Shown here piece by piece: positions 9,753 to 57,489 of a DNA stretch of 64,000 bases. Positions within the stretch are counted from its first letter, which is position 1. Every line of letters begins with the position of its first letter. The translations under genes were made by a program, and so were the position numbers. A model generated the notes under the pieces. That model was not told the origin of the DNA. It did no database searches and saw nothing but the letters and a program-made list of their open reading frames with translations. Origin of the DNA: Arcticibacter sp. (GTDB taxonomy: Bacteria > Bacteroidota > Bacteroidia > 2-12-FULL-35-15); contig JAJNQB010000006.1 in assembly GCA_021155045.1 (NCBI GenBank), positions 126,832-190,831 on the forward strand. The letters are read 5' to 3'.

Positions 9753-9770
9753 ATAAGTTGATTTATGTGT

Positions 9771-11063: not shown

Positions 11064-11112
11064 ACGGGATTGAATTTTATTTTTTTTGAGAATGTAAAAG
11101 TATAAAAAAACA

Positions 11113-24051: not shown

Positions 24052-24057
24052 TCTATT

Positions 24058-24909: not shown

Positions 24910-24922
24910 AAAAATGTAATAA

Positions 24923-26179: not shown

Positions 26180-26195
26180 TTAGAACAGGAAGAAA

Positions 26196-35888: not shown

Positions 35889-35892
35889 TTTA

Positions 35893-37116: not shown

Positions 37117-37184
37117 TACTGCTGATTTAAGATTCATAGAGATCACGAATTTTTTAAAAAAAGAATAACAAATTAATAAGTAAT

Positions 37185-37958: not shown

Positions 37959-37970
37959 CATTTTATTTTT

Positions 37971-40266: not shown

Positions 40267-40274
40267 AAATAGAT

Positions 40275-40886: not shown

Positions 40887-40895
40887 TTAATATTT

Positions 40896-41831
40896 ATGGA
40901 TAAAAAACGCGGAATACTCATCATTGCCCAAGGCAAACAACGCTATATACACATGGCTCGCCAAATTGCTGTTTCACTTGCTTTAAGCAATCCTCATATT
41001 TCAAGAGCCCTGGTTACTGATTCTCAGGATGAGGAACTAAAAAAATATTATGATATCATCATTCCTATTGATAAGTCTTTTGGTGTTGGTTACAGCCAAA
41101 AATTATACATGAATAAATACAGTCCGTTTACTAAAACCATGTTTATTGATGTGGATTGTTTGGTAATAGATTCTATCGATTGGCTTTTTGAGCGTTTTGA
41201 TGAACATCCAGTAAGTGTGATTGGAAAAAATATAACGGCAGGACCATTGTTAGGAACAACTGTCGAAATTTTAAAATCAAAACTCGACATCAATTATTTG
41301 CCGACATTTAATGGTGGAGTCTATTATTTTGAAAAAGGAGAGAAGTCCGAACGTGTTTTTAATGAAGCTTTAGACATATTTTATAATAAATACGATGAAT
41401 TGAATTTATGGAAATTCAGCGGGCAAGCAGGAGATGAGCCTGCTATGTCAATAGCAATGGCAATGCATAATATGCAACCAATAGATGATTCGGCAAAAGG
41501 AATGTACACTCCCGTTGGACAAAGCGGAGTTTTTAAAATGGACGCATTAAAAGGATATTGCGAATTTTATAAGCATGGAGAAAAAGTTACACCGGCAATC
41601 ATGCATTTTGGCGGTGGTTACCCTGAAGCTTTTCATTACAGACGGGAAACAACAAAACTAAGCTGGGTGTATCATTATAAAATTCCCAAAGCTTTCACAA
41701 GTTTTGTGGTGAATACAATTTATAATCCTCTTTACATTGTATATGTCTTTTTATATAGGATAGTTAAAAAAATAGTGAAAGGTGGCGAACTTAAATTCAC
41801 CCCGATAATGCCTATGTTTAGATTTGAATAA
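40896..41831 (+). CDS. hypothetical protein, possible GT-A-like nucleotide-sugar transferase
   Basis: 'FIDVDCLV' may be a DxD motif. Otherwise no recognisable signature. Confidence 0.3.
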   Translation: MDKKRGILIIAQGKQRYIHMARQIAVSLALSNPHISRALVTDSQDEELKKYYDIIIPIDKSFGVGYSQKLYMNKYSPFTKTMFIDVDCLVIDSIDWLFERFDEHPVSVIGKNITAGPLLGTTVEILKSKLDINYLPTFNGGVYYFEKGEKSERVFNEALDIFYNKYDELNLWKFSGQAGDEPAMSIAMAMHNMQPIDDSAKGMYTPVGQSGVFKMDALKGYCEFYKHGEKVTPAIMHFGGGYPEAFHYRRETTKLSWVYHYKIPKAFTSFVVNTIYNPLYIVYVFLYRIVKKIVKGGELKFTPIMPMFRFE

Positions 41832-42992
41832 ATGAAAAAACAAATTCTAATCGTATATGCAAAAAGCACTGATGAAATTTTTAATCGTCAGTCGGCTTTA
41901 GGTTCCTACATCCATTGTCTGGCAGGCATCCTTGTTAAAAATGGATATGGCGTAAGAATCAATGAGATTGAATTTGATTCTATTCCCGAACAGGAAACTA
42001 GGTCGGTGGTTGCAAGCGGGCAATCTTCTTTCAAAAAATTTCTGCCGGCATTTATTAAAGAGTATTGGAGAGACAAACGCATGTATTCCTGGTTGGGGAG
42101 CTTATATACCAATATTGACAATGGAAAACCTTTTGATAAAATAGTAGAGTTTTATACTTATGGTTCTGATATAGGCTACAAGTTATCGAAAAAATACAAG
42201 AAACCTTTGTTACTGGTTTACGACAACCCTGTATTGGAAGAACATGCTTTTTTTCATACCGGACAGCTGTTCTTTAAAAAAAAGGCAGCCGAACTAGAGC
42301 AATATAGCCTGCTTCAATCACAGGCAATTGTAGTTTATTCTGAGGCTGTTAAAAATTTTCTGACGAAAAAATTCAATCGCCCGCTTCCTTGTTTCATTCA
42401 TCAAAATGTTGATTATACACGTTTTGAATATGTTGAAAATAAAACAATCGATGATGGTGTTATAAATATCGGATTTATTGGTTCTTTTCTTAAATGGCAC
42501 AGAGTAGATCTTCTGCTAAAAGCTTTTACAACATTAAAAAATGAAGGACACAATGTAAAATTGTTCTTATTGGGAAATGGGATGGATTATGAAAACATAA
42601 AACAGCAGGCAAAAAACAACAAATATGCTTCAGCTATAGAAATGCCGGGATTTATGGATGGACAGCAACTTTTAAATTATAAAATAAAATTACATATTGG
42701 TGTGATGCCCGGTTCAAACTGGTATGGCGCTCCCAACAAAATATTTGAGTACGGAGCTGCTAAAATGGCTGTCGTTGCTCCGGATACTCCTACCATCAAA
42801 AGTTTATTTAATCACAATGAAGAATTACTGCTTTTTAAACAAGACGATGAAAATGATCTAATAGCAAAACTTCGTCTTTTTATTAATGACATTGAATTGT
42901 TGAAGAAATATGCAGAAACCCTTCAGATAAAAATTAAAAACAAGTATTCCGAAAACATTACCTTTGGGTTTTATCATCAACTCCTGGAGTAA
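41832..42992 (+). CDS. GT4 family glycosyltransferase
   Basis: C-domain 'APNKIFEYGAAKMAVVAPDTPTI'. Confidence 0.7.
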   Translation: MKKQILIVYAKSTDEIFNRQSALGSYIHCLAGILVKNGYGVRINEIEFDSIPEQETRSVVASGQSSFKKFLPAFIKEYWRDKRMYSWLGSLYTNIDNGKPFDKIVEFYTYGSDIGYKLSKKYKKPLLLVYDNPVLEEHAFFHTGQLFFKKKAAELEQYSLLQSQAIVVYSEAVKNFLTKKFNRPLPCFIHQNVDYTRFEYVENKTIDDGVINIGFIGSFLKWHRVDLLLKAFTTLKNEGHNVKLFLLGNGMDYENIKQQAKNNKYASAIEMPGFMDGQQLLNYKIKLHIGVMPGSNWYGAPNKIFEYGAAKMAVVAPDTPTIKSLFNHNEELLLFKQDDENDLIAKLRLFINDIELLKKYAETLQIKIKNKYSENITFGFYHQLLE

Positions 42993-43009
42993 ATTTGGTT
43001 TAAGAATTT

Positions 43010-43999
43010 ATGAATAGTCCTAAAAATATTCCCGTATTAAATTCTTTAAGAGCTTTTGCTGCTTTGTCTGTTTGTATATTTCATTATGTATGCACAGTTA
43101 CTGGTTTTGTTACTAATGAAATAATTTTGTCAATATTTTCATTTGGGCATTACGGAGTTCAAATGTTTTTTGTAATCTCTGGGTTTATTATACCATGGTC
43201 CATGTATAACAGTAAATATAAGATTCGCAACTTCTTTACATTTACAGCAAAACGATTGATTCGACTCGAGCCTCCTTATCTTATTTCTTTGCTTATTGCT
43301 ATTGTTCATACCTATGCAAGGACATTAGGTCCGCATTATAATGGTGTGGATATTACTCCATCAGGAAAAGAAATTCTCCTTCATTTTGGTTACTTGGTTC
43401 CATTTTTTGAGGGAGCTACTTGGATACGTCCTGTTTATTGGACGCTGGCAATTGAATTTCAATATTACCTTGCAATTGGATTGCTGTTTGGGTTTATTTC
43501 CAGTAATAAAATATGGCTGAGAATTATTATCTACATACTTTTTTTATCAGGACCAGTATTGCTTAAGTCTAATTTTTTACCTTTTCATTTACCTGTTTTT
43601 TTATTGGGTATAATTGTGTATTTATATAAAACAGATATTATAAAAAGTATTGAATTATATTCCGTAGCTACTACAATACTTGTTTTTATTGGTATATTCA
43701 ATAATTTGCCTACACTGTTTTTTGCAGGATTTACATTTTTAATAATTATGTATTTTAGTCATGTGAAAAGTGCGGTAGGTGATTTTTTAGGAAATATATC
43801 TTACTCTATTTATTTATTTCATAGTTTAACAGGAATGCTCTTGCTTAATTATTTTGCTCATTCTGCTACCTCAGCCTTAATTAAACTTTTATTAATAATA
43901 GTAGCTGTGCTTGTTACTATTCTAGCATCCTGGGTAGTGTATCGTTTTGTGGAAAAGCCTTCTAAGGAATTGTCATCAAGAATAAAATATAAAAAATGA
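43010..43999 (+). CDS. acyltransferase family 3 membrane O-acyltransferase
   Basis: 'IPVLNSLRAFAALSVCIFH' and multiple TM segments. Confidence 0.8.
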   Translation: MNSPKNIPVLNSLRAFAALSVCIFHYVCTVTGFVTNEIILSIFSFGHYGVQMFFVISGFIIPWSMYNSKYKIRNFFTFTAKRLIRLEPPYLISLLIAIVHTYARTLGPHYNGVDITPSGKEILLHFGYLVPFFEGATWIRPVYWTLAIEFQYYLAIGLLFGFISSNKIWLRIIIYILFLSGPVLLKSNFLPFHLPVFLLGIIVYLYKTDIIKSIELYSVATTILVFIGIFNNLPTLFFAGFTFLIIMYFSHVKSAVGDFLGNISYSIYLFHSLTGMLLLNYFAHSATSALIKLLLIIVAVLVTILASWVVYRFVEKPSKELSSRIKYKK

Positions 44000-45144
44000 G
44001 AATAGCATTACTAACCGATGGTATCTATCCTTATGTTATTGGAGGAATGCAGAAACATTCATTCTACCTTGCCCGTTATTTTGCTCAGAATAAAATCGAA
44101 GTGGATTTGTACCATACTGCTACTGATTTTGAAGGCGCAAATCGATTAAGCTGTTTTTCTGAAAAAGAAAAAAAATACATTCATTCCATACTTATCCCTT
44201 TTCCAAAATTTGATAAATTCCCTGGTCATTATATTCGAGAAATGTATGCATATTCTAAGAATATTTTTGAACATTTAAAAATGCGTCAGAAACCAGATTT
44301 TATATATGTACAAGGTTTATGTGGGATGAAACTATTTGAAAATAGAAATCAAATTAATGCCCCAATTGGCGTTAATTTTCATGGTTTGGAAATGTTTCAA
44401 AAGGCTGCCGACATTAAAACAAAGCTGGAACAATATTTTTTTAAAGGACCAGTATTGAAATCAATGAAAAATGCGGATGTTGTTTTTTCATTGGGAGGAA
44501 AACTCAGTAAAATAATTAGTGATCAAGGAGTTTCAAAAAAAAAAATTATAGAGATTCCGATTGGAGTGGACGAAAGTTGGTTGAAAAAAAACGATCTTGT
44601 TTTTAATGATAAACGAAAATTTGTTTTTATCGGTAGATATGAAAGAAGAAAAGGAATTGAAGAGTTGTCAAATGTTATAAAAAAGCTAACGAAGCAGATT
44701 GAATTTGATTTCGATTTTATTGGCGATATACCTAAGAATAAACAAATTAAACAGAGTAACATAAAATATTACGGAAGTATTAAGGACGCTGAAAAAATAA
44801 AAGAAATTCTTAATACTGCCGATGTTTTAGTTTGTCCTAGTTATAGCGAAGGTATGCCAACTGTAATTTTAGAAGCAATGGCTTCTGGACTTGCGGTTAT
44901 AGCTACAGATGTTGGTGCTGTGAGGGAACAAGTGGATAAAACTAATGGCTTATTGATTCAACCTGGAAATATTAGACAATTAAAAGAGGTTGTTAATAAG
45001 TTTATTCAAATGGAAGGAAAAGATTTAATGAAATTAAAGTTAAACTCCATTGAAAAAATAAAAAGTAAGTTTCTTTGGAATTTTATAATTTCTCAAACAA
45101 TAAAAGAAATCGAGTTAGTAGTAAATTATAGTAAAAAGTACTAA
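43996..45144 (+). CDS. GT4 family glycosyltransferase
   Basis: 'VCPSYSEGMPTVILEAMASGLAVIATDVGAVRE' is the E-x7-E motif. Contains an A11 tract at 44535-44545. Confidence 0.85.
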   Translation: MRIALLTDGIYPYVIGGMQKHSFYLARYFAQNKIEVDLYHTATDFEGANRLSCFSEKEKKYIHSILIPFPKFDKFPGHYIREMYAYSKNIFEHLKMRQKPDFIYVQGLCGMKLFENRNQINAPIGVNFHGLEMFQKAADIKTKLEQYFFKGPVLKSMKNADVVFSLGGKLSKIISDQGVSKKKIIEIPIGVDESWLKKNDLVFNDKRKFVFIGRYERRKGIEELSNVIKKLTKQIEFDFDFIGDIPKNKQIKQSNIKYYGSIKDAEKIKEILNTADVLVCPSYSEGMPTVILEAMASGLAVIATDVGAVREQVDKTNGLLIQPGNIRQLKEVVNKFIQMEGKDLMKLKLNSIEKIKSKFLWNFIISQTIKEIELVVNYSKKY

Positions 45145-45170: not shown

Positions 45171-45854
45171 ATGAACGAAATAAAAATATTTATAGCAGAC
45201 AATCTTTCGGGTTTTTCGCCTAAAACCATTCCTAATTTTATTTTTAGCTTTATTGTTTGTGCGGTTTTAGCTTTTTTACTTGGAAAATTATATATTAGAT
45301 ATGGAAACTCAATATCGAATAGAAAACAATTTGCTAGAAATTTTATGGTTTTAGCAATTACAACAATGTTTATAATTTCTGTTGTAAAATCTTCTTTAGC
45401 CTTGTCTTTAGGATTGGTTGGTGCGCTTTCCATTGTTCGATTTCGATCTGCAATAAAAGAGCCAGAAGAATTAACATATCTGTTTTTGACTATTTCTATT
45501 GGATTAGGTTGCGGAGCTGGAATGTCTATTTTAACCATAATTGCTTTTATGGGATTTGCTTTAATAATTTGGATTAATGGAAAGCTTAAACAAAAAACCG
45601 ATTCTCAAAATCTTTATCTAACCATATCCTCGAATGACCCACAAAATATTAATCTAACAACAATTGTAGAGCATTTAAAAAAAGAATGTGATTATATTAA
45701 ACTTAAAAGATCAGATGAAACCCCAAATGGTATAGAAGTTTCTTTTTTTGTTGAATTTGAGACGTTTGAAAAACTGGAAAAAGTAAAAAGCGAACTTAAA
45801 ACACTACACCCAGATATTTCTATAACCTTCATGGACAATACCAGAGAATTATAA
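45171..45854 (+). CDS. DUF4956-family membrane protein
   Basis: 'LGLVGALSIVRFRSAIKEPEELTYLFLTISIGLGCGAG' is the conserved DUF4956 core. 4 TM segments. Confidence 0.6.
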   Translation: MNEIKIFIADNLSGFSPKTIPNFIFSFIVCAVLAFLLGKLYIRYGNSISNRKQFARNFMVLAITTMFIISVVKSSLALSLGLVGALSIVRFRSAIKEPEELTYLFLTISIGLGCGAGMSILTIIAFMGFALIIWINGKLKQKTDSQNLYLTISSNDPQNINLTTIVEHLKKECDYIKLKRSDETPNGIEVSFFVEFETFEKLEKVKSELKTLHPDISITFMDNTREL

Positions 45855-46546
45855 TGAATTCTATCGAAAAGAAACTGGTTGAAAATTTACGATATGAACG
45901 TAAGTACTTAACTATGGAATATTCTGTTGGAGAAGTTGAACAGATTCTAAAGTATAACATTGGTTGTTTTTCCGAAATATATTCTCCCAGAACAGTTAAT
46001 AATATCTATTTTGATACATTAGATTTCCATAGCTATAATGAAAATGTGACTGGAGATAAGGAAAGACTCAAAATTAGAATAAGATGGTATGGATCTCTTT
46101 TTGGCGAAATCAAAAGTCCTCAGTTAGAATTTAAAATAAAAAATGGTTTGTTAGGTTACAAAAAAAATTATGAACTAAACCCATTTGTTCTAGATTCTAA
46201 CTTTAATCAATCTCAAATAAATGCTGCTATTTATAATTTACCCATTAGTATTAGAAATCAAATATCAGCCAATTATCCTACTTTGTTAAATTCTTATTTT
46301 CGAAAATATTATATATCTAAAGATAAAAAAATTAGAGTAACAATTGATTCGAATTTGAAGTATTATAAAATTAACTATACTCAAAATTATTTCTTAAATA
46401 AAACACTCAACGATAAATCTGTTATTGTTGAATTAAAATATGGAGAGTCCGATATTGAAGAAGCCATGCAAATTTCAAATGATTTTCCTTTCACATTAAC
46501 AAAAAATTCAAAATATTTAACAGGTGTTGATCGTGTGCTTTTTTAA
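45854..46546 (+). CDS. VTC (polyphosphate-polymerase/CYTH-like triphosphate tunnel) domain protein
   Basis: 'RYERKYL…IYFDTLDFHSYNEN…RLKIRIRWYG' has the VTC/CYTH-like signature. Soluble, 230 aa. Confidence 0.6.
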   Translation: MNSIEKKLVENLRYERKYLTMEYSVGEVEQILKYNIGCFSEIYSPRTVNNIYFDTLDFHSYNENVTGDKERLKIRIRWYGSLFGEIKSPQLEFKIKNGLLGYKKNYELNPFVLDSNFNQSQINAAIYNLPISIRNQISANYPTLLNSYFRKYYISKDKKIRVTIDSNLKYYKINYTQNYFLNKTLNDKSVIVELKYGESDIEEAMQISNDFPFTLTKNSKYLTGVDRVLF

Positions 46547-46555
46547 AGAAACAAA

Positions 46556-48304
46556 ATGAAACCAGTACTTAATAGAAGGAATAATAATGAGTTGAATCGG
46601 AAATATATAAAAATATTTTTTTTTATTGTGTTAGCCGCTTTCTTTTGTTTCTTTTTTTTGTTTTATTTTTATTCAGAAACAGATAAGATAAATTCTGCTT
46701 TAGCTTTATCAGAAAAACTAGAAAGACCCACTTCCACACAAGAGAGCGGGTTGTATAATTCCCCTATCTTATTGAAATTAGAAGATAATAATAATACTAC
46801 TCAAATATTCTATACGCTTGATGGAAGTGAGCCATCAGTTAACTCTATTGAATATAAAAAACCTTTTAAAATAGAATGTAATAATAATACAAATCATTTA
46901 TCTAATATTCCCACTTCTCCTAGATGGAAGCCTCCGATTGGAGATGTTTTTAAAGGAACCATTTTAAGGGCTATTTGCGTTGATAAAATTAATAATATTA
47001 AAAGTAAAGAGCTGATTAAATCATTCTTTATAAATGCAGAGGAAAAAAATGAATATTCTATCCCTGTTGTTTCTATTGTAATTAATAAAGAAGATTTTTT
47101 TTCATATAAAAAAGGGATATACGTTTTAGGGAAAAATTATGAAGACAAGAGTGATTATATTAAAAAAAAATATAGTTTGGATATGCCATGGTGGTCTTAT
47201 CCTGCAAACTATTTGTCTAAGGGAAAAAATGCAGGCAGAAAGATTTGGATTGAATATATAAATACAAATAATACAGTTTCTTTTTCTACTTATGCTGAAG
47301 CAAAAATAAATGGAAATGCAACTAGGGGCTTTGCTCAAAAATCTTTAAGAATTTCATTAGATTCAAAAATGGGGAAAGAACATGTTGATGGAATTAAGAT
47401 AGACACCATTTTTAAAAATAAAATTTATTCTTTTGTATTAAGAAATTCGGGGAACGACTGGGATAAAACTTTATTTAGAGATGAGTTTATGCAGTCATTA
47501 ATGGTAAAAACTAATTTATCAACTCAAAGTTCTATTCCTGTGCTTGTTTTTATAAATGGTGAATATTGGGGAATTCATCATTTGAAAGAAAAAATTGATG
47601 AATTTTATTTTTCTGAAAAGTATGGTTTGAATATAGATAGTTTAACTATATTAGAAAACATGGGAACTTTAGTTTACGGCAGTAAACAGGATAGTAAAGA
47701 ATTTGAAAAATTACTTGATTTTTGCAAAAATAAAGACCTATCATTGAAAATCAATTACGATTATCTCTCAAAAAAGATTGACATCGAAAATTTTATGGAT
47801 ATGATAATTGCCAATGTTTATTTCTGTAATTCTGATTGGCCAAACAATAATGTGAAATATTGGAGAAATAATAATAAGGTTGTTTGTGCTGATTCCATAA
47901 GGGCTGGAGATGGGAGGTGGCGCTGGATATTATTTGATACAGATTGGGGATTTGGGTACACTAGTAGCAATGCTTATGAGTTGGATTTGCTTGATAAGGC
48001 TAAGCATGTAGGTAGCGTTGGGGTGATTTTTAGCTCATTATTAAAAAATCAAGATTTTTTAACTAAATTTAAAATAAGGTTCAATTATCATTTATTAAAT
48101 ACTTTTGATAATGAAAAAGTGGAGCACCTGATTAATGATTTTCAAAAAAAATATTCTCCAGAAATACAAGAACATATAAATCGATGGAGAATAATTGGTT
48201 CGGTTAAAAATTGGGATAAAAATGTTGAAGATTTGAAAATATTTTCTAAAAAGAGAATGGAAATACAAAAAAAGCAATTAGATTTTTTTTTAAAAAATCA
48301 ATAA
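46556..48304 (+). CDS. CotH-family atypical protein kinase, N-terminally membrane-anchored
   Basis: 'FVLRNSGNDWDKTLFRDEFMQS…VLVFINGEYWGIHHLKEKID' and 'NVYFCNSDWPNNNVKYW…RWRWILFDTDWGFGY' are CotH motifs. N-terminal TM. Confidence 0.75.
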   Translation: MKPVLNRRNNNELNRKYIKIFFFIVLAAFFCFFFLFYFYSETDKINSALALSEKLERPTSTQESGLYNSPILLKLEDNNNTTQIFYTLDGSEPSVNSIEYKKPFKIECNNNTNHLSNIPTSPRWKPPIGDVFKGTILRAICVDKINNIKSKELIKSFFINAEEKNEYSIPVVSIVINKEDFFSYKKGIYVLGKNYEDKSDYIKKKYSLDMPWWSYPANYLSKGKNAGRKIWIEYINTNNTVSFSTYAEAKINGNATRGFAQKSLRISLDSKMGKEHVDGIKIDTIFKNKIYSFVLRNSGNDWDKTLFRDEFMQSLMVKTNLSTQSSIPVLVFINGEYWGIHHLKEKIDEFYFSEKYGLNIDSLTILENMGTLVYGSKQDSKEFEKLLDFCKNKDLSLKINYDYLSKKIDIENFMDMIIANVYFCNSDWPNNNVKYWRNNNKVVCADSIRAGDGRWRWILFDTDWGFGYTSSNAYELDLLDKAKHVGSVGVIFSSLLKNQDFLTKFKIRFNYHLLNTFDNEKVEHLINDFQKKYSPEIQEHINRWRIIGSVKNWDKNVEDLKIFSKKRMEIQKKQLDFFLKNQ

Positions 48305-48308
48305 AATT

Positions 48309-49646
48309 ATGTTAGCCTATTACAAATCAAATTTACAGTTTATTTTTTTGTTATTAATTTGGCTGTTAGTTGGTATATACGCTGGCAATGTAATCTTTTT
48401 ACTATTACCTATATCAATGATTCTTCTAAAGCAAAAATATAGGATAGAAGAATTAATTTTAGGTTATCTTTTTATCTTAATTTTATCCGACAGCTTAGAG
48501 CCGAGTTTATTATTTGCAAAATCCATAAAGAATGTTTATATCACTTTATTGGCGATTTTCTTTTTTCTTGATTTAAAATCGTTTAAACCTTATAATAAAC
48601 TATTTTTAATATTTGGTTTCTTTTTTATTTTTTCTGTAATAACAATGCTGACAAGTGTGAACGAAACTTTTTTTTTAACTAGTCTGCAAAAAACAATTTC
48701 TTATTTTTTAACATTTTTAATAATCCCTAATTATATACTTCTTATTTATAGGGAAAAAGGTGACGATTTTTTAAGATCAATTACCTACTTTTTGGTTACA
48801 GGGCTATTTCTTGGTGTGGCTTTTAAGTTTTTTGCCCATGATTTAGCTTATATTCAAGGAGGAAGATATAGAGGTATTATGGGAAATCCTAATGGGATGG
48901 GTATCGTTGCAGTTTTGTTCTTTATAATATTTTTTATTTTTGATAGCACCAAACCGATTCTTTTTACAAAAAATGAAAAAATATTTTTTTACTGCATAAT
49001 TTTTTTCACCATATATGCTACTGGTTCTCGAAATGCTATTATTGCTATTGTTATTTTTTATTTATTGCAAAAATTTTATAAAATATCTCCTTTCTTAGGG
49101 TTTATACTTTTTTTACTTTTAATTTTTGTGGTGGAAATCATTTCAAATAATTTAATTTCTATTTTAGCCAGTATTGGTTTAAATGATTTATTTCGAATAA
49201 ATACGATTGATAACGGAAGTGGAAGATACATTGCATGGAATTTTGCTTGGATTCAAATCCAAAATAATTTATTTATTGGAAAAGGTTTTGGATATAATGA
49301 ATTTTACATGCGACAGCATTATGGCGAATTATCTAAACTTGGACATCAAGGTGGGATACATAACTCTTTTTTAACTTTTTGGATGGATCAAGGTTTAGTT
49401 GGTTTATTGTTATATTTACAAGCATTTGTTTATTTGTTTTTAAAAGCGGCTAAAAAAACGAAATTCGCTTTACCTATAATGTTTACTATAGCCTTTACTG
49501 CTATATTTGAGTCTTGGTTAGTAGGCTCTTTGAGTGCATTTGCTTTTCTAAGTGTTTTTATTTTTACGCTGTTAAATGATGATGAAATACTTTTTGATAA
49601 AATAGAAAATAAAGAGGTTCAACCTGAAATTCAATTGGAACCTTGA
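48309..49646 (+). CDS. O-antigen ligase / Wzy-type polymerase family membrane protein
   Basis: About 11 TM segments. 'GGIHNSFLTFWMDQGLVGLLLY' matches the Wzy_C/O-antigen ligase domain. Confidence 0.7.
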   Translation: MLAYYKSNLQFIFLLLIWLLVGIYAGNVIFLLLPISMILLKQKYRIEELILGYLFILILSDSLEPSLLFAKSIKNVYITLLAIFFFLDLKSFKPYNKLFLIFGFFFIFSVITMLTSVNETFFLTSLQKTISYFLTFLIIPNYILLIYREKGDDFLRSITYFLVTGLFLGVAFKFFAHDLAYIQGGRYRGIMGNPNGMGIVAVLFFIIFFIFDSTKPILFTKNEKIFFYCIIFFTIYATGSRNAIIAIVIFYLLQKFYKISPFLGFILFLLLIFVVEIISNNLISILASIGLNDLFRINTIDNGSGRYIAWNFAWIQIQNNLFIGKGFGYNEFYMRQHYGELSKLGHQGGIHNSFLTFWMDQGLVGLLLYLQAFVYLFLKAAKKTKFALPIMFTIAFTAIFESWLVGSLSAFAFLSVFIFTLLNDDEILFDKIENKEVQPEIQLEP

Positions 49647-49658
49647 AAAATTAATTTT

Positions 49659-52238
49659 ATGCTTATCTCCGGAAAACAAAATAAAATGTATAAAAAAATA
49701 GTTTCAAGAAAAAATGTATTGCTTTTTCTTGTTTTATTAACTGTTGTTTCACTATTTGAATTTAATTCAATTGTTAAGTCAAAGAACTATAATAATCTTT
49801 ATGATTTTATCTCAACAGTTGTTTCTAATTACAAAAATAGCTGGGATGCAAAACCTGAAACAATTTCAATAGAAATAAAAGATAAAGATTTTAAAAAATT
49901 AGAAAAAAATAGAAAGCAAGCTTTAGAAAGAGGCGTTATTATAAATGATATGGATGGTGATTATGTATCAGCTGTGATTGAATATAATGGAAAAAAAATA
50001 AATTCGAAACTTCGATTAAAAGGGCATATGACAGATCACTTGCAAAATAACAAATGGTCGTTTCGAGTTAAAATTAAAGAGAACGATGAAACCTTTATGG
50101 GTATGAAACGTTTTTCTTTACAACATCCTGGCACCCGAGGATATATTTATGAATGGCTTTATCATGAGTTGATGAAACGAGAAGATGTTATTGCTTTACG
50201 CTATAAGTTTATTAATGTAAAAGTTAATGGAGACGATTGGGGGATTTATGCTGTGGAAGAAAATTTCGAAAATGAATTGTTAGCAAATAACAACAGATTA
50301 ACAGGACCAATTATTCGTTTTAACCCTGATTTATATTGGGTAAATCGTTATAATGAATATCAGAGAATTAATTCTTTTGACGAATTCGCTTCTTATTACT
50401 CTGCAAACCCTGAAGCTTATAGAGAAGAAAAAGTTTTAAAAGATTCCGTTCAAAAGGAATATTATCTAAAAGCTATTGCTTTGATTGAGGGCTTAAGAAG
50501 CAAACAAATATCTGTTGATGTGGCTTTTGACATACCAAGGCTTGCGAAATTTCACGCAATAATTGATTTAGTTGGCGGTGTTCATAGTATTGATTGGAGC
50601 GATATTAAATATTATTATAACCCTGTTACAGCAAAACTTGAGCCTGTTGCTTACGAAAGTTTTACCGTGCTTAATTCTAAAAACATTTCCTCCCAATATA
50701 AATTTGTTAGTTTAGACTCATCTGCAAACTATGAAGATTGGCACTCCATGATTTTTAGTGATAAGACTTTTTTCAAAGAATATATAAAACAGGTTGAACG
50801 AATTTGTTCTGCAGATTATTTAACCACATTTTTTGATGAATCGAATAAAGAACTCAAAAATAATTTAGCAATTATCTATAAAGAATTTCCGTATAAGAAG
50901 TTTGATAAGGAAGATTATTTTAAAAGAGTCAAACAAATTCAGCGAGTATTAAATCCACCGAAAGCTGTTCATGCTTACTTACAGAATATTGAAAATAACA
51001 TTGCAACAGTTCAAGTTGCTGCTATTGATGCACTTCCGGTTGAAATAAAATCTATTCAAATAGATGGTAATAATTATAAGCTTAGTGAAGATGTAATTCT
51101 TCCAAGTAAAAAAGCAAATTCCTTTTTAGTATATACTACTGTTAAATTTAAATTAAATGCAGATTTTGTATGGAAGGCTTCATATTCCGATTCTTTAAAA
51201 ATTAACTATTCCATTTTAGGTTCTTCCTTAAATAAAGAAGTTAAACTATTTCCATTTCCACATACGGATAGTGAATTTATAAATGAGGAGTTAAAAAACA
51301 AGAAATCTACAATAGAAAATGATGAAAATTTTATAGTAGATGAAAAAACTAAGATGATTCAATTAAAATCAAATAAAACTACTATTAGCAATGATGTTGT
51401 TGTTCCAGCAGGCTATGTGTTTTTTGTGAGAGCTGGGGCTGTGATAGATTTTAAAAAAAAGGCTAAACTTATTTCGTATTCGCCTTTGTCATTTATTGGA
51501 AATGTTGATTTTCCCATAACTGTTACATCAAGCGATTCATCATCTCAAGGAATTGAAATAATTAATTCAGAAAAATCTATTTTAAGTTATGTTGTGTTTA
51601 AAGGCTTTCCTATAATTGCAGATTTTCAATGGAAAAGAAGTGGTACTCTTACTTTTTATGAATCCGAAGTAGAAATTAAAAATTGCAGTTTTTATAACTT
51701 CAAATCAGAAGATGTAATCAATGTAATTCGTTCAAAATTTTTAATCCAAAATTGTTTGTTTCAAAACTGTAAAAATGATGGATTTGATGCTGATTTTTCT
51801 GAAGGGACAATCGAGGGTTGTGCTTTTGAGGATTGCATTGAAAACGCAATTGATATTACAAAAAGCAAAGTATTGTTGAAATCTATTTATATAAGTGGTT
51901 CCATGAATAAGGGATTAAATTTTAAAGATGGCTCTGAAATAATAGCCAATGACCTGAAAATTAAAAATTCTTATATCGGAGTTTCTGCAGAAGATTATAG
52001 CCTTGTGAAGATAAATGACATTGAGTTAACAAATAATGAGTATGGTTTAGTTTCTTATAAAAATAAACCTTCAGCTGGGCATGCAGATATAACCGTTGTT
52101 AAGATAAAGTTAGTTAATGTAAAAAAAGACTACTTGAAAGAAAGAAAGTCTCTAATTAATATTGATGGAGCAGAGATAAAAGAAGATATAAACGATGTAG
52201 AGCTAATCATTAAGAAAAATGGTAAAAAGAAAAAATAA
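49659..52238 (+). CDS. CotH-family kinase fused to a C-terminal right-handed beta-helix domain, N-terminal membrane anchor
   Basis: CotH-like 'FSLQHPGTRGYIYEWLYHELMKRE…INVKVNGDDWGIYAVEENFE' and 'GVHSIDWSDIKYYYN'. C-terminal repeats 'NCSFYNF…NCLFQNC…GCAFEDC' form a parallel beta-helix. Confidence 0.6.
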   Translation: MLISGKQNKMYKKIVSRKNVLLFLVLLTVVSLFEFNSIVKSKNYNNLYDFISTVVSNYKNSWDAKPETISIEIKDKDFKKLEKNRKQALERGVIINDMDGDYVSAVIEYNGKKINSKLRLKGHMTDHLQNNKWSFRVKIKENDETFMGMKRFSLQHPGTRGYIYEWLYHELMKREDVIALRYKFINVKVNGDDWGIYAVEENFENELLANNNRLTGPIIRFNPDLYWVNRYNEYQRINSFDEFASYYSANPEAYREEKVLKDSVQKEYYLKAIALIEGLRSKQISVDVAFDIPRLAKFHAIIDLVGGVHSIDWSDIKYYYNPVTAKLEPVAYESFTVLNSKNISSQYKFVSLDSSANYEDWHSMIFSDKTFFKEYIKQVERICSADYLTTFFDESNKELKNNLAIIYKEFPYKKFDKEDYFKRVKQIQRVLNPPKAVHAYLQNIENNIATVQVAAIDALPVEIKSIQIDGNNYKLSEDVILPSKKANSFLVYTTVKFKLNADFVWKASYSDSLKINYSILGSSLNKEVKLFPFPHTDSEFINEELKNKKSTIENDENFIVDEKTKMIQLKSNKTTISNDVVVPAGYVFFVRAGAVIDFKKKAKLISYSPLSFIGNVDFPITVTSSDSSSQGIEIINSEKSILSYVVFKGFPIIADFQWKRSGTLTFYESEVEIKNCSFYNFKSEDVINVIRSKFLIQNCLFQNCKNDGFDADFSEGTIEGCAFEDCIENAIDITKSKVLLKSIYISGSMNKGLNFKDGSEIIANDLKIKNSYIGVSAEDYSLVKINDIELTNNEYGLVSYKNKPSAGHADITVVKIKLVNVKKDYLKERKSLINIDGAEIKEDINDVELIIKKNGKKKK

Positions 52239-53271
52239 AACAATCTTTTTTTTATTTTGTGTTTTGAGTTTTTTATCGTTCTATGTTAAATCTCAAACGG
52301 TTTCTCCTTTTAATGGATTAAAAATTAATGATACACTTAAAAACTATTCGTTTATTGTTAGTGGACATTTTCATGGACAATCGAATAATATTTCTACTTT
52401 TCCTGCAGCTTCTCTACTTGCAAATATTGATACACTTAATAGTATTAAACCAAATTTTTTAGTCAGTTTAGGCGATTTGTTTCTTGATGTTAATGATGAA
52501 TATATCAATCATTACAACAAAAGTTTTTTTAATAAAATTTCTTTTCCAATGTTTAATGTGGTTGGGAATCACGATATATCCAATGGAAACGTATATGAAA
52601 AAAAATATGGAAAAACTTTTTTCTCATTTATATTAAACTCAGAGCTGTATATTTTTTTAAATACAGAAATTAATGATGGTAGTATAAAAGGAGAACAATT
52701 TGATTTTTTTAAACAAACTTTAAGTGTTAGTTCTTTAGATAATATTAAAAATATTTTTATTTTTTCTCACCGTCCGATATGGGCAGAGCGAATTTTGAAA
52801 TACGAAAAATTATTCTTGGAAAACACTCGCACTTCAATAGGAAAAAATAATTTTACGGAAGACATATTGCCATTATTTCAAAATATAAAACATAAAAATA
52901 TTTTTTGGATGTCTGGTTCAATGGGTGGCGGAGCTTCCTCTTTTTTTTATGATAAAAACAATGAATTAGGTATCACTTTTATTCAAACGGCTATTAGAGA
53001 TACTCCTAGAGATGCGATGTTGAAAGTAACCGTGAATAAAAAGAATGTTTCTTTTGACGGTATTTCATTAACAGGGAATAAAATTGAACCTATTGAAAAT
53101 TATAATGTTGATTTTTGGTTAAATTCTTCTTCGCCCGAAAATGATTTTAATTATAGATTATTGCCATACTTGACAAAACAAATGTTGTTACATCGTTATT
53201 TTTGGTTTGGATTTGTAACCGCATTACTTTTAATATTCATGTTTGCTTTTATTAAAAGAGGGCGCAAATGA
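52219..53271 (+). CDS. calcineurin-like metallophosphoesterase with signal peptide and C-terminal TM anchor
   Basis: 'FIVSGHFHGQ', 'SLGDLF', 'VVGNHD' and 'FIFSHRP' are metallophosphoesterase motifs. Overlaps the upstream CotH gene by 20 nt. Confidence 0.75.
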   Translation: MVKRKNKTIFFLFCVLSFLSFYVKSQTVSPFNGLKINDTLKNYSFIVSGHFHGQSNNISTFPAASLLANIDTLNSIKPNFLVSLGDLFLDVNDEYINHYNKSFFNKISFPMFNVVGNHDISNGNVYEKKYGKTFFSFILNSELYIFLNTEINDGSIKGEQFDFFKQTLSVSSLDNIKNIFIFSHRPIWAERILKYEKLFLENTRTSIGKNNFTEDILPLFQNIKHKNIFWMSGSMGGGASSFFYDKNNELGITFIQTAIRDTPRDAMLKVTVNKKNVSFDGISLTGNKIEPIENYNVDFWLNSSSPENDFNYRLLPYLTKQMLLHRYFWFGFVTALLLIFMFAFIKRGRK

Positions 53272-54311
53272 AAATCCTTTTTTTATATACCGAAATAGCA
53301 GATTATTTTTTAGCTGGTTGTAAAGAGCTTATTAATAAAGCTGCTGATGTTCATGTTGTGAGATGGCAAGTGAATCAAGAAGCTCCTTTTCAGTTTAATT
53401 ATCCCAATGGTTTAAATGTATATGATAAAAATAATTATAGTGGAATTAGACTACTTCAATTGGTAGATAAAATAAATCCCGATATAATTATTTGTAGTGG
53501 CTGGGTTGATAAAGATTATTTAGCAGTCTGCAAAAAATATAAAAATAAAGCTATTACAATTTTAACCTTAGATAACCAATGGAAAGGAAGTCTAAAACAA
53601 CTGTTCGCATCCATTATTAGTCCATTTTATTTAAAATTTCGTTTTAATAAATGTTGGGTGCCTGGAGAGTTACAAAAAAAATATGCACGTAAATTGGGTT
53701 TCGAAAATGAAAACATTATTGATGGGTTTTACACTTGTGATTTTAATTTATTTCAGAATCAATACTTGAAAAATAGAATTGAAAAAGAAAAAAACTTTCC
53801 AAAACGTTTTATTTTTGTTGGTAGGTATTATGAGTTTAAAGGCATTCGAGATTTATGGCAAGCTTTTATTGAACTTCATAATGAAAGTCCGAACGACTGG
53901 GAGTTGTGGTGTTTAGGAACAGGAACTATTGATCCGATAAAGCATGAAAAAATAAAACATTTTGGTTTTGTTCAGCCGAAAGATTTGCCTCACTATATCA
54001 AAGAAACTGGAGTTTTTGTTTTACCTAGTCATTTTGAGCCATGGGGAGTGGTTGTTCATGAATTTGCATCTGCTGGGTTTCCACTAATTTGTTCAAATGA
54101 AGTAGGTGCAAAAACAGCTTTTGTTGAAGATGCTGTAAACGGTTATATTTACAAAGCAGGTGATATTCAGCAATTGAAATCAAAAATGAAATTAATGATG
54201 AATGAAAGCTCTGAAAAATTAATTTCGATGGGATTAAAAAGCGTTGAAAAAGCTAAAAAGAATACTCCCGAAATATGGGCTGATAAGTTGATAAGAATGA
54301 TTAGTAAATAG
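53268..54311 (+). CDS. GT4-like glycosyltransferase
   Basis: 'VLPSHFEPWGVVVHEFASAGFPLICSNEVGA' is of the E-x7-E type. Confidence 0.7.
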   Translation: MKILFLYTEIADYFLAGCKELINKAADVHVVRWQVNQEAPFQFNYPNGLNVYDKNNYSGIRLLQLVDKINPDIIICSGWVDKDYLAVCKKYKNKAITILTLDNQWKGSLKQLFASIISPFYLKFRFNKCWVPGELQKKYARKLGFENENIIDGFYTCDFNLFQNQYLKNRIEKEKNFPKRFIFVGRYYEFKGIRDLWQAFIELHNESPNDWELWCLGTGTIDPIKHEKIKHFGFVQPKDLPHYIKETGVFVLPSHFEPWGVVVHEFASAGFPLICSNEVGAKTAFVEDAVNGYIYKAGDIQQLKSKMKLMMNESSEKLISMGLKSVEKAKKNTPEIWADKLIRMISK

Positions 54312-54394: not shown

Positions 54395-56283
54395 ATGTGC
54401 GGAATTAATGGTATCATAGGAATTCAAAATGTTGTTATTGCAAAAGAAAAAATTATTGCAATGAACAATCGCATGAGTCATCGCGGACCTGATGATGAAG
54501 GAATATTTGTTGATGAAAATATTGCGTTGGGACATAGAAGACTTTCAATTATTGATTTGTCGTCTGCTGGACATCAGCCCATGCAATCGTTTGATGGACG
54601 TTATCAAATTATATACAATGGTGAGTTATACAATTACAAAGAATTGAAATTTGAATTACAAAGAGTTGTTGCAGGTTCAAATCAACAAGCATATATTTTT
54701 CAGACAAATACAGATACAGAAGTTATCATTGCTGCATTTGCAAGATGGGGAATAGATTGTGTAAAAAGATTTAATGGAATGTTTGCTTTTGCTATTTGGG
54801 ATAACCAAAATAAAGAATTATTTATTGCAAGAGACAGATTAGGAATTAAGCCTTTGTATTATTTATATGTGAATGAGATTTTTGCTTTTTCTTCAGAAAT
54901 ACGTTCATTGCTTGCTAGTAATTTAATTTCGAGAAAGCTTGATCAGAATAGTTTAGTTGATTATTTGAGATACCAAACTGTTCATGCGCCTAATACAATA
55001 GTAAAAGGCATTAAAATGCTAATGCCTGGTCATTTCATTTCCATGAAAAATAATGAATTGAGAATTAAAAAGTATTGGGACATAAATTCCTTTATAAAAC
55101 CAGCAGATGCAAAAGCAAGTTACAATGAAATTTGTAAAAATGTAAATGAATTACTCACTAAATCGGTAGAAAGAAGATTAATTGCAGATGTTCCTTTTGG
55201 AGCTTTTTTGTCTGGGGGAATTGATTCGAGTGCTATAGTTGGTTTAATGAGTAAAGTGTCAACTGAAAAGATTAAAACATTTAATATATCGTTTGATGAA
55301 AGTGAATTTTCGGAGGCTAAGTACGCTACTTTAATTGCTAAAAAATTTAATACCGATCATCACGAAATACGATTAACTCCTCAGGATTTTTTAAATGATT
55401 TACCTAGTGCATTAAAGGCAATGGATCATCCAAGTGGTGATGGGCCGAACTCGTATGTTGTTTCTAAGGCTACCAAAAGAGCTGGAATAACAATGGCTTT
55501 ATCTGGGTTAGGAGGAGATGAATTATTTGGAGGTTATGATGTTTTCAAGCGCAATTTAGATTTAAATAAAAAAGCATGGCTGAATGGAATACCAAAAATT
55601 GCCCGTTCTTTCGGTGGAGAAGTTTTAACAACAATAAAACCATCAATTGCTTCCGAAAAAATTGCAGAACTATTAAGGAAAAATAAAATTAATTTTCAAT
55701 CTTTTTATCCGATCACACGACAAGTGTTAATGGATAAGCAAATTTTAAATATTATAAATAGGAATCAATTAACAAAAAATAGAGTTGCTGAAATCATAGA
55801 AGAATCTCACATCTCACATCTCACATCTCACAAGTCTCCATTGCCGAGATTTCTACTTATATGCAAAATGTTTTGCTCCGAGATACAGACCAAATGAGTA
55901 TGGCTCATGCGCTAGAAGTAAGGGTTCCTTTTATTGATTATACATTGGTGGAATATGTGCTTGGAATTCCTGATAAGTATAAAAATGTGTCGAGTCCCAA
56001 AAAACTTTTAATAGATGCACTGGGTGATTTATTGCCAGATGAAGTTGTAAATCGGACTAAAATGGGTTTTACATTTCCATGGAAGCATTGGATGAAGAAC
56101 GAATTAAAATATTTTTGCGAAAGTAATATAGTGTCTCTATCAAAACGAGCGATGTTTAATGAAAGTGCTATAATTGCCATGTGGAATAATTTTTTGGCGG
56201 ATAAAAAAATAGTTACTTGGTCTCGTATTTGGCATTTAGTTGTGCTGGAAAATTGGTTACAAGAAAATAACATTGAGGAATAG
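54395..56283 (+). pseudogene. asnB: asparagine synthase (glutamine-hydrolysing) family amidotransferase, split by a frameshift at a heptanucleotide repeat (frame 2 to frame 1 near 55805-55832)
   Basis: N-terminus 'MCGINGI' is a class-II GATase Cys2. 'SGGIDSS' is the PP-loop. The second ORF (55861-56283) continues the C-terminal AsnB domain ('DQMSMAHALEVRVPFIDY'). Frame 1 is open through the repeat, reading '…ISQVSIAEISTYMQNVLLRD…'. Confidence 0.8.
55805..55832 (+). repeat. (TCTCACA)x4 perfect heptanucleotide tandem repeat at the asnB frameshift point
   Basis: 'tctcacatctcacatctcacatctcaca' read directly. A gain of one unit or a loss of two units would restore a single ~630-aa ORF. Confidence 0.95.
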
Positions 56284-57428
56284 TGGATCATAAAAAGAAA
56301 ATTTTAATATTTATCGATTGGTATTTGCCTGGGTTCAAAGCTGGCGGACCAATTCAATCTATTTCTAATTTAGTTTCACACTTATCAGGTGATTTTGATT
56401 TTTACATAGTTACCAGAGATACGGATTATTGTGAATCGATTCCATATAAGTCCATTAAAAGTGATGACTGGAACGATTCAGAAAATGGGACGAAAGTTTA
56501 TTACTTTTCTCAAAATAATTTAAATAGAATTGGAATTAGGAATTTGTTAAGAAAAACTGATTTTGATGTTGTTTATTTAAACGGTATTTATTCTTTTTAT
56601 TTTACATTGCTACCACTTATATATTTAAGAAAAAAACACAATAAAAAAGTTGTTGTTGCAGCAAGAGGTATGCTTGCAGCAAGTGCATTGGGTGTTAAGA
56701 AAAATAAAAAATCGTTTTTTATTAGGGCTGTAAAAATTTTAAGTTTATTTGACAATGTTATTTTTCATGCCACTAATGAAAATGAAAAAAATGATATACA
56801 AAACGTTTTAGGAGAAAAATATAAAATTAAAGTAGCTGCAAATTTACCTCCATCAAAGGCTTATGACACTAATCCTAATAGAATTAAGGATGCTGGTTTT
56901 GTACGTATTGTTAATGTTGCTAGAGTTGCACCAGAAAAAAATTTATTGTTTGCATTAAAAGCATTAATGCTTTGTAGAGTAAATGTTGAATTTGATTTTT
57001 ATGGACCAATTTACAATCAAGAATATTGGAATGAATGTAAAGAAGTAATGAATAATTTGCCTCAAAATGTTAAAGTTATTTATAAAGGTAGCGTAGAAAG
57101 TGAAAAAGTTTTTGATGTTCTAAAAGAATATCATTTTATGTTTATGCCAACACAAGGAGAAAATTTTGGACATATTATATTGCAATCTTTTATGGCTGGT
57201 TGCCCAGTAATAATAAGCGATAAAACCCCCTGGAAGAATTTAGAAGAAAAAAATATTGGTTGGGATATACCATTAAATGATATTGAAAAATTTGCAAACA
57301 TAATTGAGAATACATCAAAAATGAATCAAGATGATTTTAATTTAATTTCCAAATCAACCTTTGAATTTGCTCAACAATATTTGGATAATGTTGAAATTGT
57401 AAATCAAAGCAAGAGTCTTTTTCATTAA
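56283..57428 (+). CDS. GT4 family glycosyltransferase
   Basis: 'MFMPTQGENFGHIILQSFMAGCPVIISD' is the E-x7-E motif. Confidence 0.75.
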   Translation: MDHKKKILIFIDWYLPGFKAGGPIQSISNLVSHLSGDFDFYIVTRDTDYCESIPYKSIKSDDWNDSENGTKVYYFSQNNLNRIGIRNLLRKTDFDVVYLNGIYSFYFTLLPLIYLRKKHNKKVVVAARGMLAASALGVKKNKKSFFIRAVKILSLFDNVIFHATNENEKNDIQNVLGEKYKIKVAANLPPSKAYDTNPNRIKDAGFVRIVNVARVAPEKNLLFALKALMLCRVNVEFDFYGPIYNQEYWNECKEVMNNLPQNVKVIYKGSVESEKVFDVLKEYHFMFMPTQGENFGHIILQSFMAGCPVIISDKTPWKNLEEKNIGWDIPLNDIEKFANIIENTSKMNQDDFNLISKSTFEFAQQYLDNVEIVNQSKSLFH

Positions 57429-57489
57429 ATTTCACTTGCATCATTACTATTCTTCATTAACTTTGTTTCACAAACTTTTATCGAATATT

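Follow-up and report, generated by a model that had tools for sequence, protein, structure and literature searches.

A set of genes encoding a CotH homologue, a "polyphosphate polymerase" with a VTC domain and a DUF4956 protein has been described beside Gram-positive pelDEADAFG loci (Whitfield et al., 2020), and is also present in C. perfringens NELoc-2. In S. intermedius, where the set corresponds to SIR_1592-1594, deletion of the genes homologous to DUF4956 and CotH reduces both aggregation and the production of Pel, and synteny of the trio was reported to occur only at Pel loci (mBio 2025). No paper assigning a mechanism to the trio was found in the literature. Here we describe a seven-gene cassette that contains the same three families, located in a 64,000-nucleotide (nt) stretch of DNA from Arcticibacter sp. 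(contig JAJNQB010000006.1, positions 126,832 to 190,831; the whole stretch is hereafter called the window). The cassette is a wider definition of a module that was noticed before and never characterised. A preceding note made from the sequence of the window (the original prediction) had considered the role of the trio unassigned. This holds for the mechanism, but the trio itself had already been noticed beside Gram-positive Pel loci.

As in the Pel-associated set, the three families are in the window adjacent, co-directional and next to exopolysaccharide genes. In the Pel-associated set the CotH protein is likewise predicted to be secreted, the DUF4956 protein is described as having four transmembrane (TM) helices and an ACT domain, and a glycan-cleaving partner is present. 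The window differs from it in belonging to the Bacteroidota, which are Gram-negative, and in its setting of ATP-binding cassette (ABC) transporter and Wzc genes. It further differs in having two CotH paralogues, in carrying a beta-helix fused to CotH instead of a separate DUF4832 hydrolase, and in the addition of Wzy_C, phosphoesterase and GT4 genes. Pfam scans of the open reading frames (ORFs) across the window detected neither Pel nor DUF4832 families, and membership of a Pel locus was rejected because Pel genes are lacking.

Two other systems provide a frame for the analysis. In yeast, the VTC complex couples polyphosphate synthesis to translocation through a Vtc1/3/4 membrane channel (bioRxiv 10.1101/2023.01.27.525886), and beyond the membrane the chain meets the lumenal polyphosphatases Ppn1 and Ppn2. 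A 2025 review calls VTC the eukaryote-type polymerase and PPK the prokaryote-type enzyme. The second system is the Bacillus spore-coat kinase CotH (structures 5JD9 and 5JDA), of which the B. subtilis protein requires residues D228 and D251 (PMC7821199).

The cassette and its conservation

The ORFs of the window were scanned with Pfam and identities were assigned by gathering score. The cassette spans positions 45171-54311, and its seven genes are all on the forward strand. The first encodes a DUF4956 membrane protein (45171..45854; Pfam DUF4956, 2.9e-18) and the second a VTC-domain protein of 230 amino acids (aa), predicted to be cytoplasmic and a candidate polyphosphate polymerase (45854..46546; PF09359, 3.4e-26). 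They are followed by CotH1, membrane-anchored and predicted to be periplasmic (46556..48304; CotH, 1.2e-43, with N-terminal Fn3_assoc and CHB_HEX_C_1), and by a polytopic membrane protein of the Wzy_C/O-antigen-ligase type (48309..49646; Wzy_C, 2.7e-14). The fifth gene encodes CotH2, also membrane-anchored, in which a CotH fold is joined to an Ig-like sandwich and a right-handed beta-helix (49659..52238; CotH, 8.3e-14; Beta_helix, 2.7e-17). A metallophosphoesterase-like protein, predicted to be periplasmic and a candidate (poly)phosphatase (52219..53271; marginal Metallophos match), and a GT4 glycosyltransferase (GT), the last conserved member (53268..54311; Glycos_transf_1, 1.5e-20), complete the cassette. 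The successive junctions are of -1, 9, 4, 12, -20 and -4 nt.

What the original prediction had observed is confirmed. The six ORFs that it described lie exactly where it placed them, the Pfam families that it named are matched by all six (Metallophos only marginally), and the 20-nt overlap of the CotH2 and phosphoesterase genes is real. Hydropathy upholds the membrane anchors of both CotH proteins and the signal peptide of the phosphoesterase. Operon-like packing and the glycan-locus setting hold as well, with co-directional GT and acyltransferase genes around the cassette (33997-59961). A scan of the locus for promoters and terminators gave results at chance level, with a method ill-suited to Bacteroidota promoters; the G+C content of the window is about 30%, which, together with the sorting domains of the type IX secretion system, points to a Bacteroidota genome.

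Loci with the same gene order were first met in the neighbourhoods of VTC homologues about 50% identical to that of the window, in unrelated metagenome-assembled genomes (MAGs) of Bacteroidota. For the survey of VTC loci, one genome per species was scanned, and the 80 loci kept were annotated with iterated hidden Markov models. The order of the window (DUF4956, VTC, CotH1, Wzy_C, CotH2/beta-helix, a protein of about 350 aa corresponding to the phosphoesterase, GT4) was found in about 25 loci from Bacteroidota. The proteins of the approximately 25 other genomes with this order are 45-75% identical to those of the window, and the glycan genes flanking the cassette vary from genome to genome. In a second and widespread type, the order is DUF4956, CotH2/beta-helix, VTC. 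It is carried by Saprospiraceae, Cyclobacteriaceae, Bacteroidales, Planctomycetota, Poribacteria, Ignavibacteriales and Nannocystaceae and, among archaea, by Methanosarcina, Nanoarchaeota and Woesearchaeota. A third type, that of the Flavobacteriaceae, is ordered phosphoesterase, CotH2/beta-helix, VTC, DUF4956, second CotH, this second CotH being CotH2-like.

Linkage was quantified on 45 VTC loci, all non-redundant and with VTC flanked on each side by at least 4.5 kb of sequence. Both a DUF4956 and a CotH gene lie at most three genes from VTC in 44 of them, in Bacteria as well as in Archaea. As this linkage is combined with the recurrence of one gene order in about 25 genomes, the arrangement is not a chance juxtaposition. 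Synteny of the trio is thus widespread outside Pel loci, in contrast to the Pel-only distribution reported in the S. intermedius study. The core that is shared across phyla consists of DUF4956, VTC and the beta-helix-fused CotH, not of CotH1: CotH1-type proteins occur in the window-type cassette, in Rufibacter and in loci L069 and L080, and CotH1, Wzy_C and GT4 are additions in the cassette type of the window. The trio put forward as a unit in the original prediction is therefore linked, but the conserved unit comprises seven genes, including Wzy_C and GT4, and its core CotH is CotH2.

Several individual loci deserve mention. In L001, a PDDEXK_3 nuclease-like gene (11028-11363) is inserted between VTC and CotH1 in an otherwise intact cassette. 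The single-cell genome of a nanoarchaeon (L077) contains two complete trios in opposite orientations (6634-9974, forward strand; 12469-16588, reverse strand), and in a Saprospiraceae MAG (L048, 6660-17681) four tandem CotH paralogues follow the trio. In L074 (chromosome of Methanosarcina sp. Mfa9) and L084, the carriers of the trio DUF4956, CotH-beta-helix, VTC are methanogenic archaea, which means that the trio cannot require a Gram-negative periplasm to function. Loci L036 and L067 have long "DUF4956" ORFs, which were considered as fusions and rejected, as they are upstream ORF extensions.

The VTC protein

The match of the VTC protein to its Pfam model scores 92.7 bits, against a cut-off of 23, and covers model positions 2-232 of 235. 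Its nearest homologue is 57% identical. The family comprises 2186 cluster representatives at E <= 1e-10, and the best 150 of those listed are, with few exceptions, stand-alone proteins some 230 aa in length. A profile built from 30 homologues matches the catalytic domain of yeast Vtc4 (3g3q) with an E-value of 4e-6.

Activity of Vtc4 needs residues K200, R264, R266, K281, Y359, R361, E426, S457 and K458, the last of which is Ile or Leu in the inactive Vtc2 and Vtc3 (bioRxiv 10.1101/2023.01.27.525886). In the alignment, these nine residues pair, in order, with K17, R75, R77, K94, Y148, R150, E193, S219 and K220 of the window protein, although towards the C-terminus (E193, S219, K220) the alignment has a low score by itself; the Pfam model matches that part fully. 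All nine are invariant in the 30 homologues, and the equivalent of K458 is a lysine (K220). The protein is accordingly best described, from its residues, as a Vtc4-like candidate polyphosphate polymerase with an apparently intact active site.

Pfam and hydropathy detected no SPX domain and no C-terminal TM segment in the 230-aa protein. The cassette thus shares with the eukaryotic VTC complex the tunnel-domain family and the nine catalytic residues and, according to the topology predicted for the window, a catalytic domain on the ATP side and phosphoesterase-type enzymes on the far side. It differs in that the polymerase domain is a separate protein, lacking SPX and the DUF202-type TM region, that its proposed membrane partner is the unrelated DUF4956 protein, and that the far-side partners include kinase-fold proteins.

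CotH1 and CotH2

CotH1 and CotH2 score 150.4 and 52.3 bits, respectively, against the CotH model (PF08757, cut-off 23.8). A single-sequence search of the PDB with CotH1 returned nothing relevant, but profile searches matched B. cereus CotH (5jd9) with E-values of 2.9e-8 for CotH1 and 1.6e-13 for CotH2. Judging from their 23-residue spacing, the two residues required in B. subtilis would be equivalent to D224 (in NFDGF) and D247 (in WDYD) of the B. cereus protein. D427 and N432 of CotH1 align to B. cereus catalytic D224 and N229, and D461-x-D463 is the equivalent of WDYD, as judged by eye in a stretch that HMMER had split. Among 25 orthologues, K262, D427 and D461 show no variation, and N432 and D463 almost none. 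CotH1 retains the canonical kinase residues Lys, Asp, Asn and DxD. Its Fn3_assoc and CHB_HEX_C_1 domains are Ig-like and hexosaminidase-associated.

In CotH2, the Pfam matches extend over residues 119-431 (CotH) and 625-760 (Beta_helix). An AlphaFold2 model, computed from an alignment of low diversity (database homologues 44-65% identical), has a mean predicted local distance difference test (pLDDT) score of 87. Compared by Foldseek, it matches B. cereus CotH 5jda with an E-value of 1.4e-11 and a target-normalised TM-score of 0.66. The beta-helix matches GH87 glucanase, AlgG, AlgE, PL6 lyases, NosD and phage tailspikes, and it presents a strongly conserved acidic face (D626, D685, D707, D710, D712, D732, D779). 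The family motif in the CotH domain is H309-x5-N/D315-x-R-F-Y-Y-N321-P...L-E328-P-I-x-[FY]-[DE]333, in which the Asn, Asn, Glu and acidic anchors are spaced exactly as in B. cereus. H309 precedes the position of the canonical Asp in 47 of 56 sequences, and the metal-binding position is acidic (E333; E or D in 51 of 56). Profile-profile alignment pairs CotH1 D427 with CotH2 D312, a residue that is invariant only within the window-type cassette.

Both proteins share Pfam family and fold with the Bacillus spore-coat kinase, and CotH1 also its catalytic residues. They differ from it in being membrane-anchored, predicted to be extracytoplasmic and fused to glycan-type domains, and CotH2 in addition in apparently lacking the canonical Asp. 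With a signal anchor and a polysaccharide-locus setting, they do not resemble a spore-coat kinase operating in an ATP-containing compartment, and no endospore formers are known among the Bacteroidota. Kinase-fold enzymes that act on glycans outside the cytosol do exist, namely the xylose kinase FAM20B and POMK; these use ATP imported into the Golgi or endoplasmic reticulum lumen, and no polyphosphate polymerase is involved. The window CotHs share with them the kinase fold and a predicted non-cytosolic placement; any relationship in sequence would be remote.

The DUF4956, phosphoesterase, Wzy_C and GT4 proteins

Of all cassette members, the DUF4956 protein is the best conserved, with identities of 69-76% to its nearest relatives. 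A 30-residue segment, VKSSLALSLGLVGALSIVRFRxAIKEPEEL, shows at least 90% conservation over a set of 81 sequences that includes archaeal ones. The structural model (pLDDT 76) consists of helices up to residue 143, followed by a C-terminal beta-alpha-beta-beta-alpha-beta domain that resembles ACT, PII-like and MgtC C-terminal domains. Such an ACT/MgtC-C-like domain, if cytoplasmic as predicted, would be of a kind typical of regulated membrane proteins. The protein is not assignable to the MgtC/SapB/YhiD family, its similarity being far below the family threshold. We propose that it may serve as a membrane partner or conduit for VTC.

The phosphoesterase reaches 21.6 bits against a Metallophos (PF00149) cut-off of 21.5. 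The best solved relatives of its profile are SMPDL3A (2.2e-5) and purple acid phosphatases (5.6e-5). Compared with the calcineurin-like series DxH / GD / GNH[DE] / H / GHxH, the motifs GD (85-86) and GNHD (116-119) and H184 are invariant, whereas motif I reads G-H50-x-H(Y) and motif V has no histidine. The gene accompanies that of CotH2 in window-type and Flavobacteriaceae-type loci.

The Wzy_C protein (53.6 bits, cut-off 31.7) is predicted to be polytopic and contains H351-N-X9-G-X-X-G, which appears to fit the WaaL motif. Its gene lies between the two CotH genes in the approximately 25 window-type loci, where a GT4 homologue directly follows the phosphoesterase gene.

Predicted topology

Topology was called from hydropathy and the positive-inside rule only. 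The DUF4956 protein has about 4-5 predicted TM helices and then its soluble C-terminal domain; the Wzy_C protein has at least 10 hydrophobic segments. By hydropathy, no hydrophobic segment, TM helix or signal peptide is present in the VTC protein. In CotH1 a K/R-rich N-terminus precedes a single TM helix at residues 20-38, and CotH2 likewise has a K/R-rich N-terminus and then a single TM anchor, so the remainder of each CotH protein is predicted to be extracytoplasmic. In the phosphoesterase, a signal peptide is found at one end and a TM helix at the C-terminal end, after which comes the sequence KRGRK. The hydropathy pattern thus predicts a cytoplasmic VTC protein and extracytoplasmic CotH1, CotH2 and phosphoesterase, which would place the polymerase-like domain on the ATP side of the membrane and the kinase-like and phosphatase-like domains on the opposite side.

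A metagenomic protein of 1110 aa, P0500, looks like a fusion of CotH, beta-helix and VTC; its parts are joined by an Arg/Gly-rich linker, and no TM helix separates them. Because of that linker, we judge that the protein probably arose as an artefact, by a frameshift or by read-through of overlapping genes.

The surrounding polysaccharide locus

The neighbourhood of the cassette was examined for its link to glycan genes. Window-type cassettes nearly always have GT, acyltransferase and aminotransferase genes at their flanks. Among loci of other architectures, at least one glycan gene occurs within 6 kb in 22 of 29, and at least three in 13 of 29. For the bare trio, glycan genes account for 65 of 244 neighbours (27%) within 6 kb and for 4 of 45 (9%) at 6-10 kb (p = 0.012), and in 10 of 23 cases the bare trio is without a co-directional gene within 150 nt, which gives it a stand-alone appearance. 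A Pfam scan of 138 neighbouring proteins yielded epimerases, GT2, DegT, Polysacc_synt_2 and MBOAT proteins together with unrelated housekeeping genes. The association of the bare trio with glycan genes is real but not obligatory. Hence the glycan link expected from the original prediction is borne out for the window-type cassette, while the bare trio shows enrichment and often stands alone.

In the window, the cassette lies between two variable parts, both on the forward strand. The upstream part (33997..45144; Pfam, NCBIfam) encodes GT11, GT2 and GT4 glycosyltransferases, an FkbM-like methyltransferase, two Acyl_transf_3 proteins and a hexapeptide transferase, and its gene content differs among genomes with the same cassette. 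The downstream part (54395..59961; Pfam) encodes an AsnB-like amidotransferase in two ORFs, a GT4, a carbamoyltransferase and a GT2. Export genes identified by Pfam are found further upstream (21703..26179, forward strand) and encode a Wzc-like chain-length/tyrosine-kinase protein, Wzm, and Wzt with Wzt_C.

The Wzt gene with its C-terminal glycan-binding Wzt_C domain is followed by genes for a hexapeptide transferase and two methyltransferases (24923-28575, forward strand). By analogy with the E. coli O8/O9a type, this layout suggests that export may be gated by a chain-terminating modification. It also bears on the comparison with WbdD, which the original prediction had invoked. WbdD is a cytoplasmic kinase, fused to a methyltransferase and a coiled coil, that caps O-antigen chains before export. 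The resemblance consists of a kinase-fold enzyme in an ABC-transporter-type glycan locus, together with a Wzt C-terminal domain of the kind that recognises capped ends. The window CotHs are, in contrast to WbdD, predicted to be periplasmic, belong to a different kinase family and have no methyltransferase domain, and separate methyltransferases are encoded beside Wzt in the locus. The analogy breaks down because WbdD is cytoplasmic and both CotH domains are predicted to be periplasmic; moreover, Wzt with Wzt_C and the two methyltransferases could already serve cytoplasmic chain termination.

Other features of the window are as follows. The AsnB-like gene is split into overlapping ORFs of 500 and 140 aa (54395-55897 and 55861-56283, forward strand), of which the first corresponds to the N-terminal and the second to the C-terminal part of Asn_synthase; an intact homologue in L004 has 630 aa. 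The split is a probable frameshift, due either to a pseudogene or to a sequencing error, and no homopolymer run is evident at the ORF junction. Just upstream of the polysaccharide region, a 178-aa ORF (18220-18756, reverse strand) matches the exosortase (EpsH) model in its C-terminal two-thirds only (positions 103-251 of 254); the alternatives are a short exosortase-like protein and a truncated gene. Four large proteins with type IX secretion system C-terminal sorting domains (1617-4352, reverse; 11739-18110, forward; 19061-21469, reverse; 30923-32647, forward) flank and interrupt the polysaccharide region, one of them being a 2123-aa protein with PKD and Ig domains and another an M43 peptidase. 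At the end of the locus, the gene for a 1061-aa protein with a weak N-terminal DUF748 match below the curated cut-off (60476-63661, reverse strand) adjoins a GNAT acetyltransferase gene.

Discussion

We consider it possible, although somewhat short of an even chance, that the cassette is a trans-membrane module of phosphate chemistry acting on a surface-polysaccharide pathway, in which VTC makes polyphosphate, DUF4956 exports it, and the CotH proteins and the phosphoesterase draw on it or shorten it at the glycan. The individual steps are what we infer beyond gene content, residue conservation, predicted topology and synteny. VTC would polymerise polyphosphate from cytoplasmic ATP. DUF4956 would dock VTC through its ACT-like domain and pass the chain across the membrane, like the membrane portion of the VTC complex in yeast. 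As ATP is not normally available in the periplasm, CotH1 could take polyphosphate as phosphoryl donor there and phosphorylate the exported glycan. The beta-helix of CotH2 would hold or cut the glycan, and its divergent CotH domain, with a conserved His next to the site of the catalytic Asp, might bind or transfer the end of the polyphosphate. The phosphoesterase may trim polyphosphate or remove phosphate, in the manner of the lumenal polyphosphatases working with yeast VTC, and Wzy_C and GT4 would supply a cassette-specific glycan step at the same face of the membrane. The broader proposal, that this is a prokaryotic VTC-type machine for polyphosphate-fuelled extracytoplasmic phosphorylation of glycans in Bacteria and Archaea, with trimming by the phosphoesterase, is put forward tentatively and is less likely than not to hold.

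In favour of such a module are the invariant Vtc4-type residues of VTC, the predicted topology, the linkage in 44 of 45 loci, the strong conservation of DUF4956 with its ACT/MgtC-C-like domain, the canonical residues of CotH1, the glycan-type domains of both CotH proteins, the enrichment of glycan genes near the bare trio and the position of window-type cassettes inside glycan loci, the lowered Pel levels and aggregation of the S. intermedius deletions, and the precedent of yeast VTC. Several points weigh against it. The only demonstrated activity of a CotH protein is the ATP-dependent phosphorylation of protein serines (PMC7821199). The position of the canonical catalytic Asp in CotH2 is occupied by S/P/A/G throughout the family, and the core partner may for this reason not be a phosphotransferase. 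We know of no CotH that uses polyphosphate or acts on sugars. The phosphoesterase may be inactive, given its non-canonical motifs I and V. DUF4956 is unrelated to the DUF202-type membrane part of eukaryotic VTC, and no solved homologue of its own membrane part was found; MgtC-like proteins are known to be regulators and not channels. The topology derives from hydropathy and the positive-inside rule, and P0500, if it were real, would put CotH and VTC domains on the same side of the membrane. Finally, glycan genes are absent from the 6 kb around the bare trio in 7 of 29 loci.

The interpretation given in the original prediction is thus partly supported. A phosphate- or polyphosphate-linked step on the glycan is still the most economical reading. 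Families, anchors, operon-like packing and glycan setting hold, but the WbdD analogy does not, and to call the CotH-beta-helix fusion a new carbohydrate-directed kinase was premature for a family that apparently lacks the canonical catalytic Asp.

Exported polyphosphate might instead be the product. It would be deposited on, or ionically cross-link, a possibly cationic, de-N-acetylated exopolysaccharide; CotH2 would handle or anchor it without being a kinase, the phosphoesterase would set its chain length, and no sugar would be phosphorylated. The apparent lack of the canonical Asp in the core CotH fits this explanation, as do the 10 of 23 bare trios that stand alone, the polysaccharide deacetylase genes recurring beside the trio (L005, L022, L046, L051, L053, L057, L058, L074), the cationic Pel polymer that the Gram-positive trio accompanies, and the parallel between a far-side phosphoesterase and yeast Ppn1 and Ppn2. 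It is nonetheless unlikely: CotH1 of the window, having every canonical kinase residue, argues for real phosphotransfer, the acidic face of the beta-helix is better suited to binding a glycan or cations than to binding polyphosphate directly, and the putative export through DUF4956 is shared with the phosphorylation model.

Improbable, too, is that the CotH proteins are extracytoplasmic protein kinases acting on the polysaccharide machinery or on matrix proteins, with VTC and DUF4956 forming a cytoplasmic, MgtC-like pair for sensing phosphate or polyphosphate. Such a role would agree with protein Ser phosphorylation as the sole characterised activity of CotH (PMC7821199), with the regulation via protein phosphorylation proposed by the authors of the Pel study (Whitfield et al., 2020), with the resemblance of the DUF4956 architecture to MgtC/YhiD, and with the Wzc-like tyrosine-kinase co-polymerase encoded nearby. 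However, the predicted location of the CotH domains is one that lacks ATP, their fusion partners are glycan-type modules and not protein-interaction domains, and the near-obligatory pairing of an intact polymerase with an outward-facing CotH (44 of 45 loci) would be left unexplained.

Alternatively, the donor could be lipid-linked, that is, undecaprenyl pyrophosphate (Und-PP) or an Und-PP-glycan from the Wzy_C reaction, in an LpxT-like manner; the phosphoesterase would recycle the carrier and polyphosphate would stay cytoplasmic. The known periplasmic phosphoryl donors are lipids (Und-PP for LpxT, phosphatidylethanolamine for EptA), and in the window-type cassette Wzy_C is located between the two CotH genes and GT4 follows. 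We regard this as quite improbable, as the majority of trios lack a Wzy_C gene although VTC and DUF4956 are never missing, and no kinase-fold enzyme is known to use Und-PP. That the trio was inserted in the glycan locus by coincidence, without functional link, is barely credible in spite of the unrelated PDDEXK_3 gene inside the cassette of L001 and of bare trios that can stand alone, given that about 25 genomes with differing flanking glycan genes share one order of the seven genes, stop codons overlapping with starts, and that the cassette itself holds GT4 and Wzy_C genes.

These results extend the reported range of the module beyond Pel loci, its sole earlier reported setting, and identify the beta-helix-fused CotH, not the canonical CotH, as the cross-phylum core partner. 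The cassette bears on two questions: how polyphosphate may come to be placed outside bacterial cells, and which phosphoryl donor secreted kinase-fold proteins use where ATP is absent. Cultured carriers include Rufibacter immobilis, Agaribacillus aureus, Winogradskyella sp. and Methanosarcina sp.; with these, and with an apparently intact Vtc4-like site linked almost obligatorily to an outward-facing CotH, both questions become experimentally accessible. If phosphorylation of the glycan proved true, the cassette would represent a new route of modification for the surface polysaccharides of Bacteroidota.

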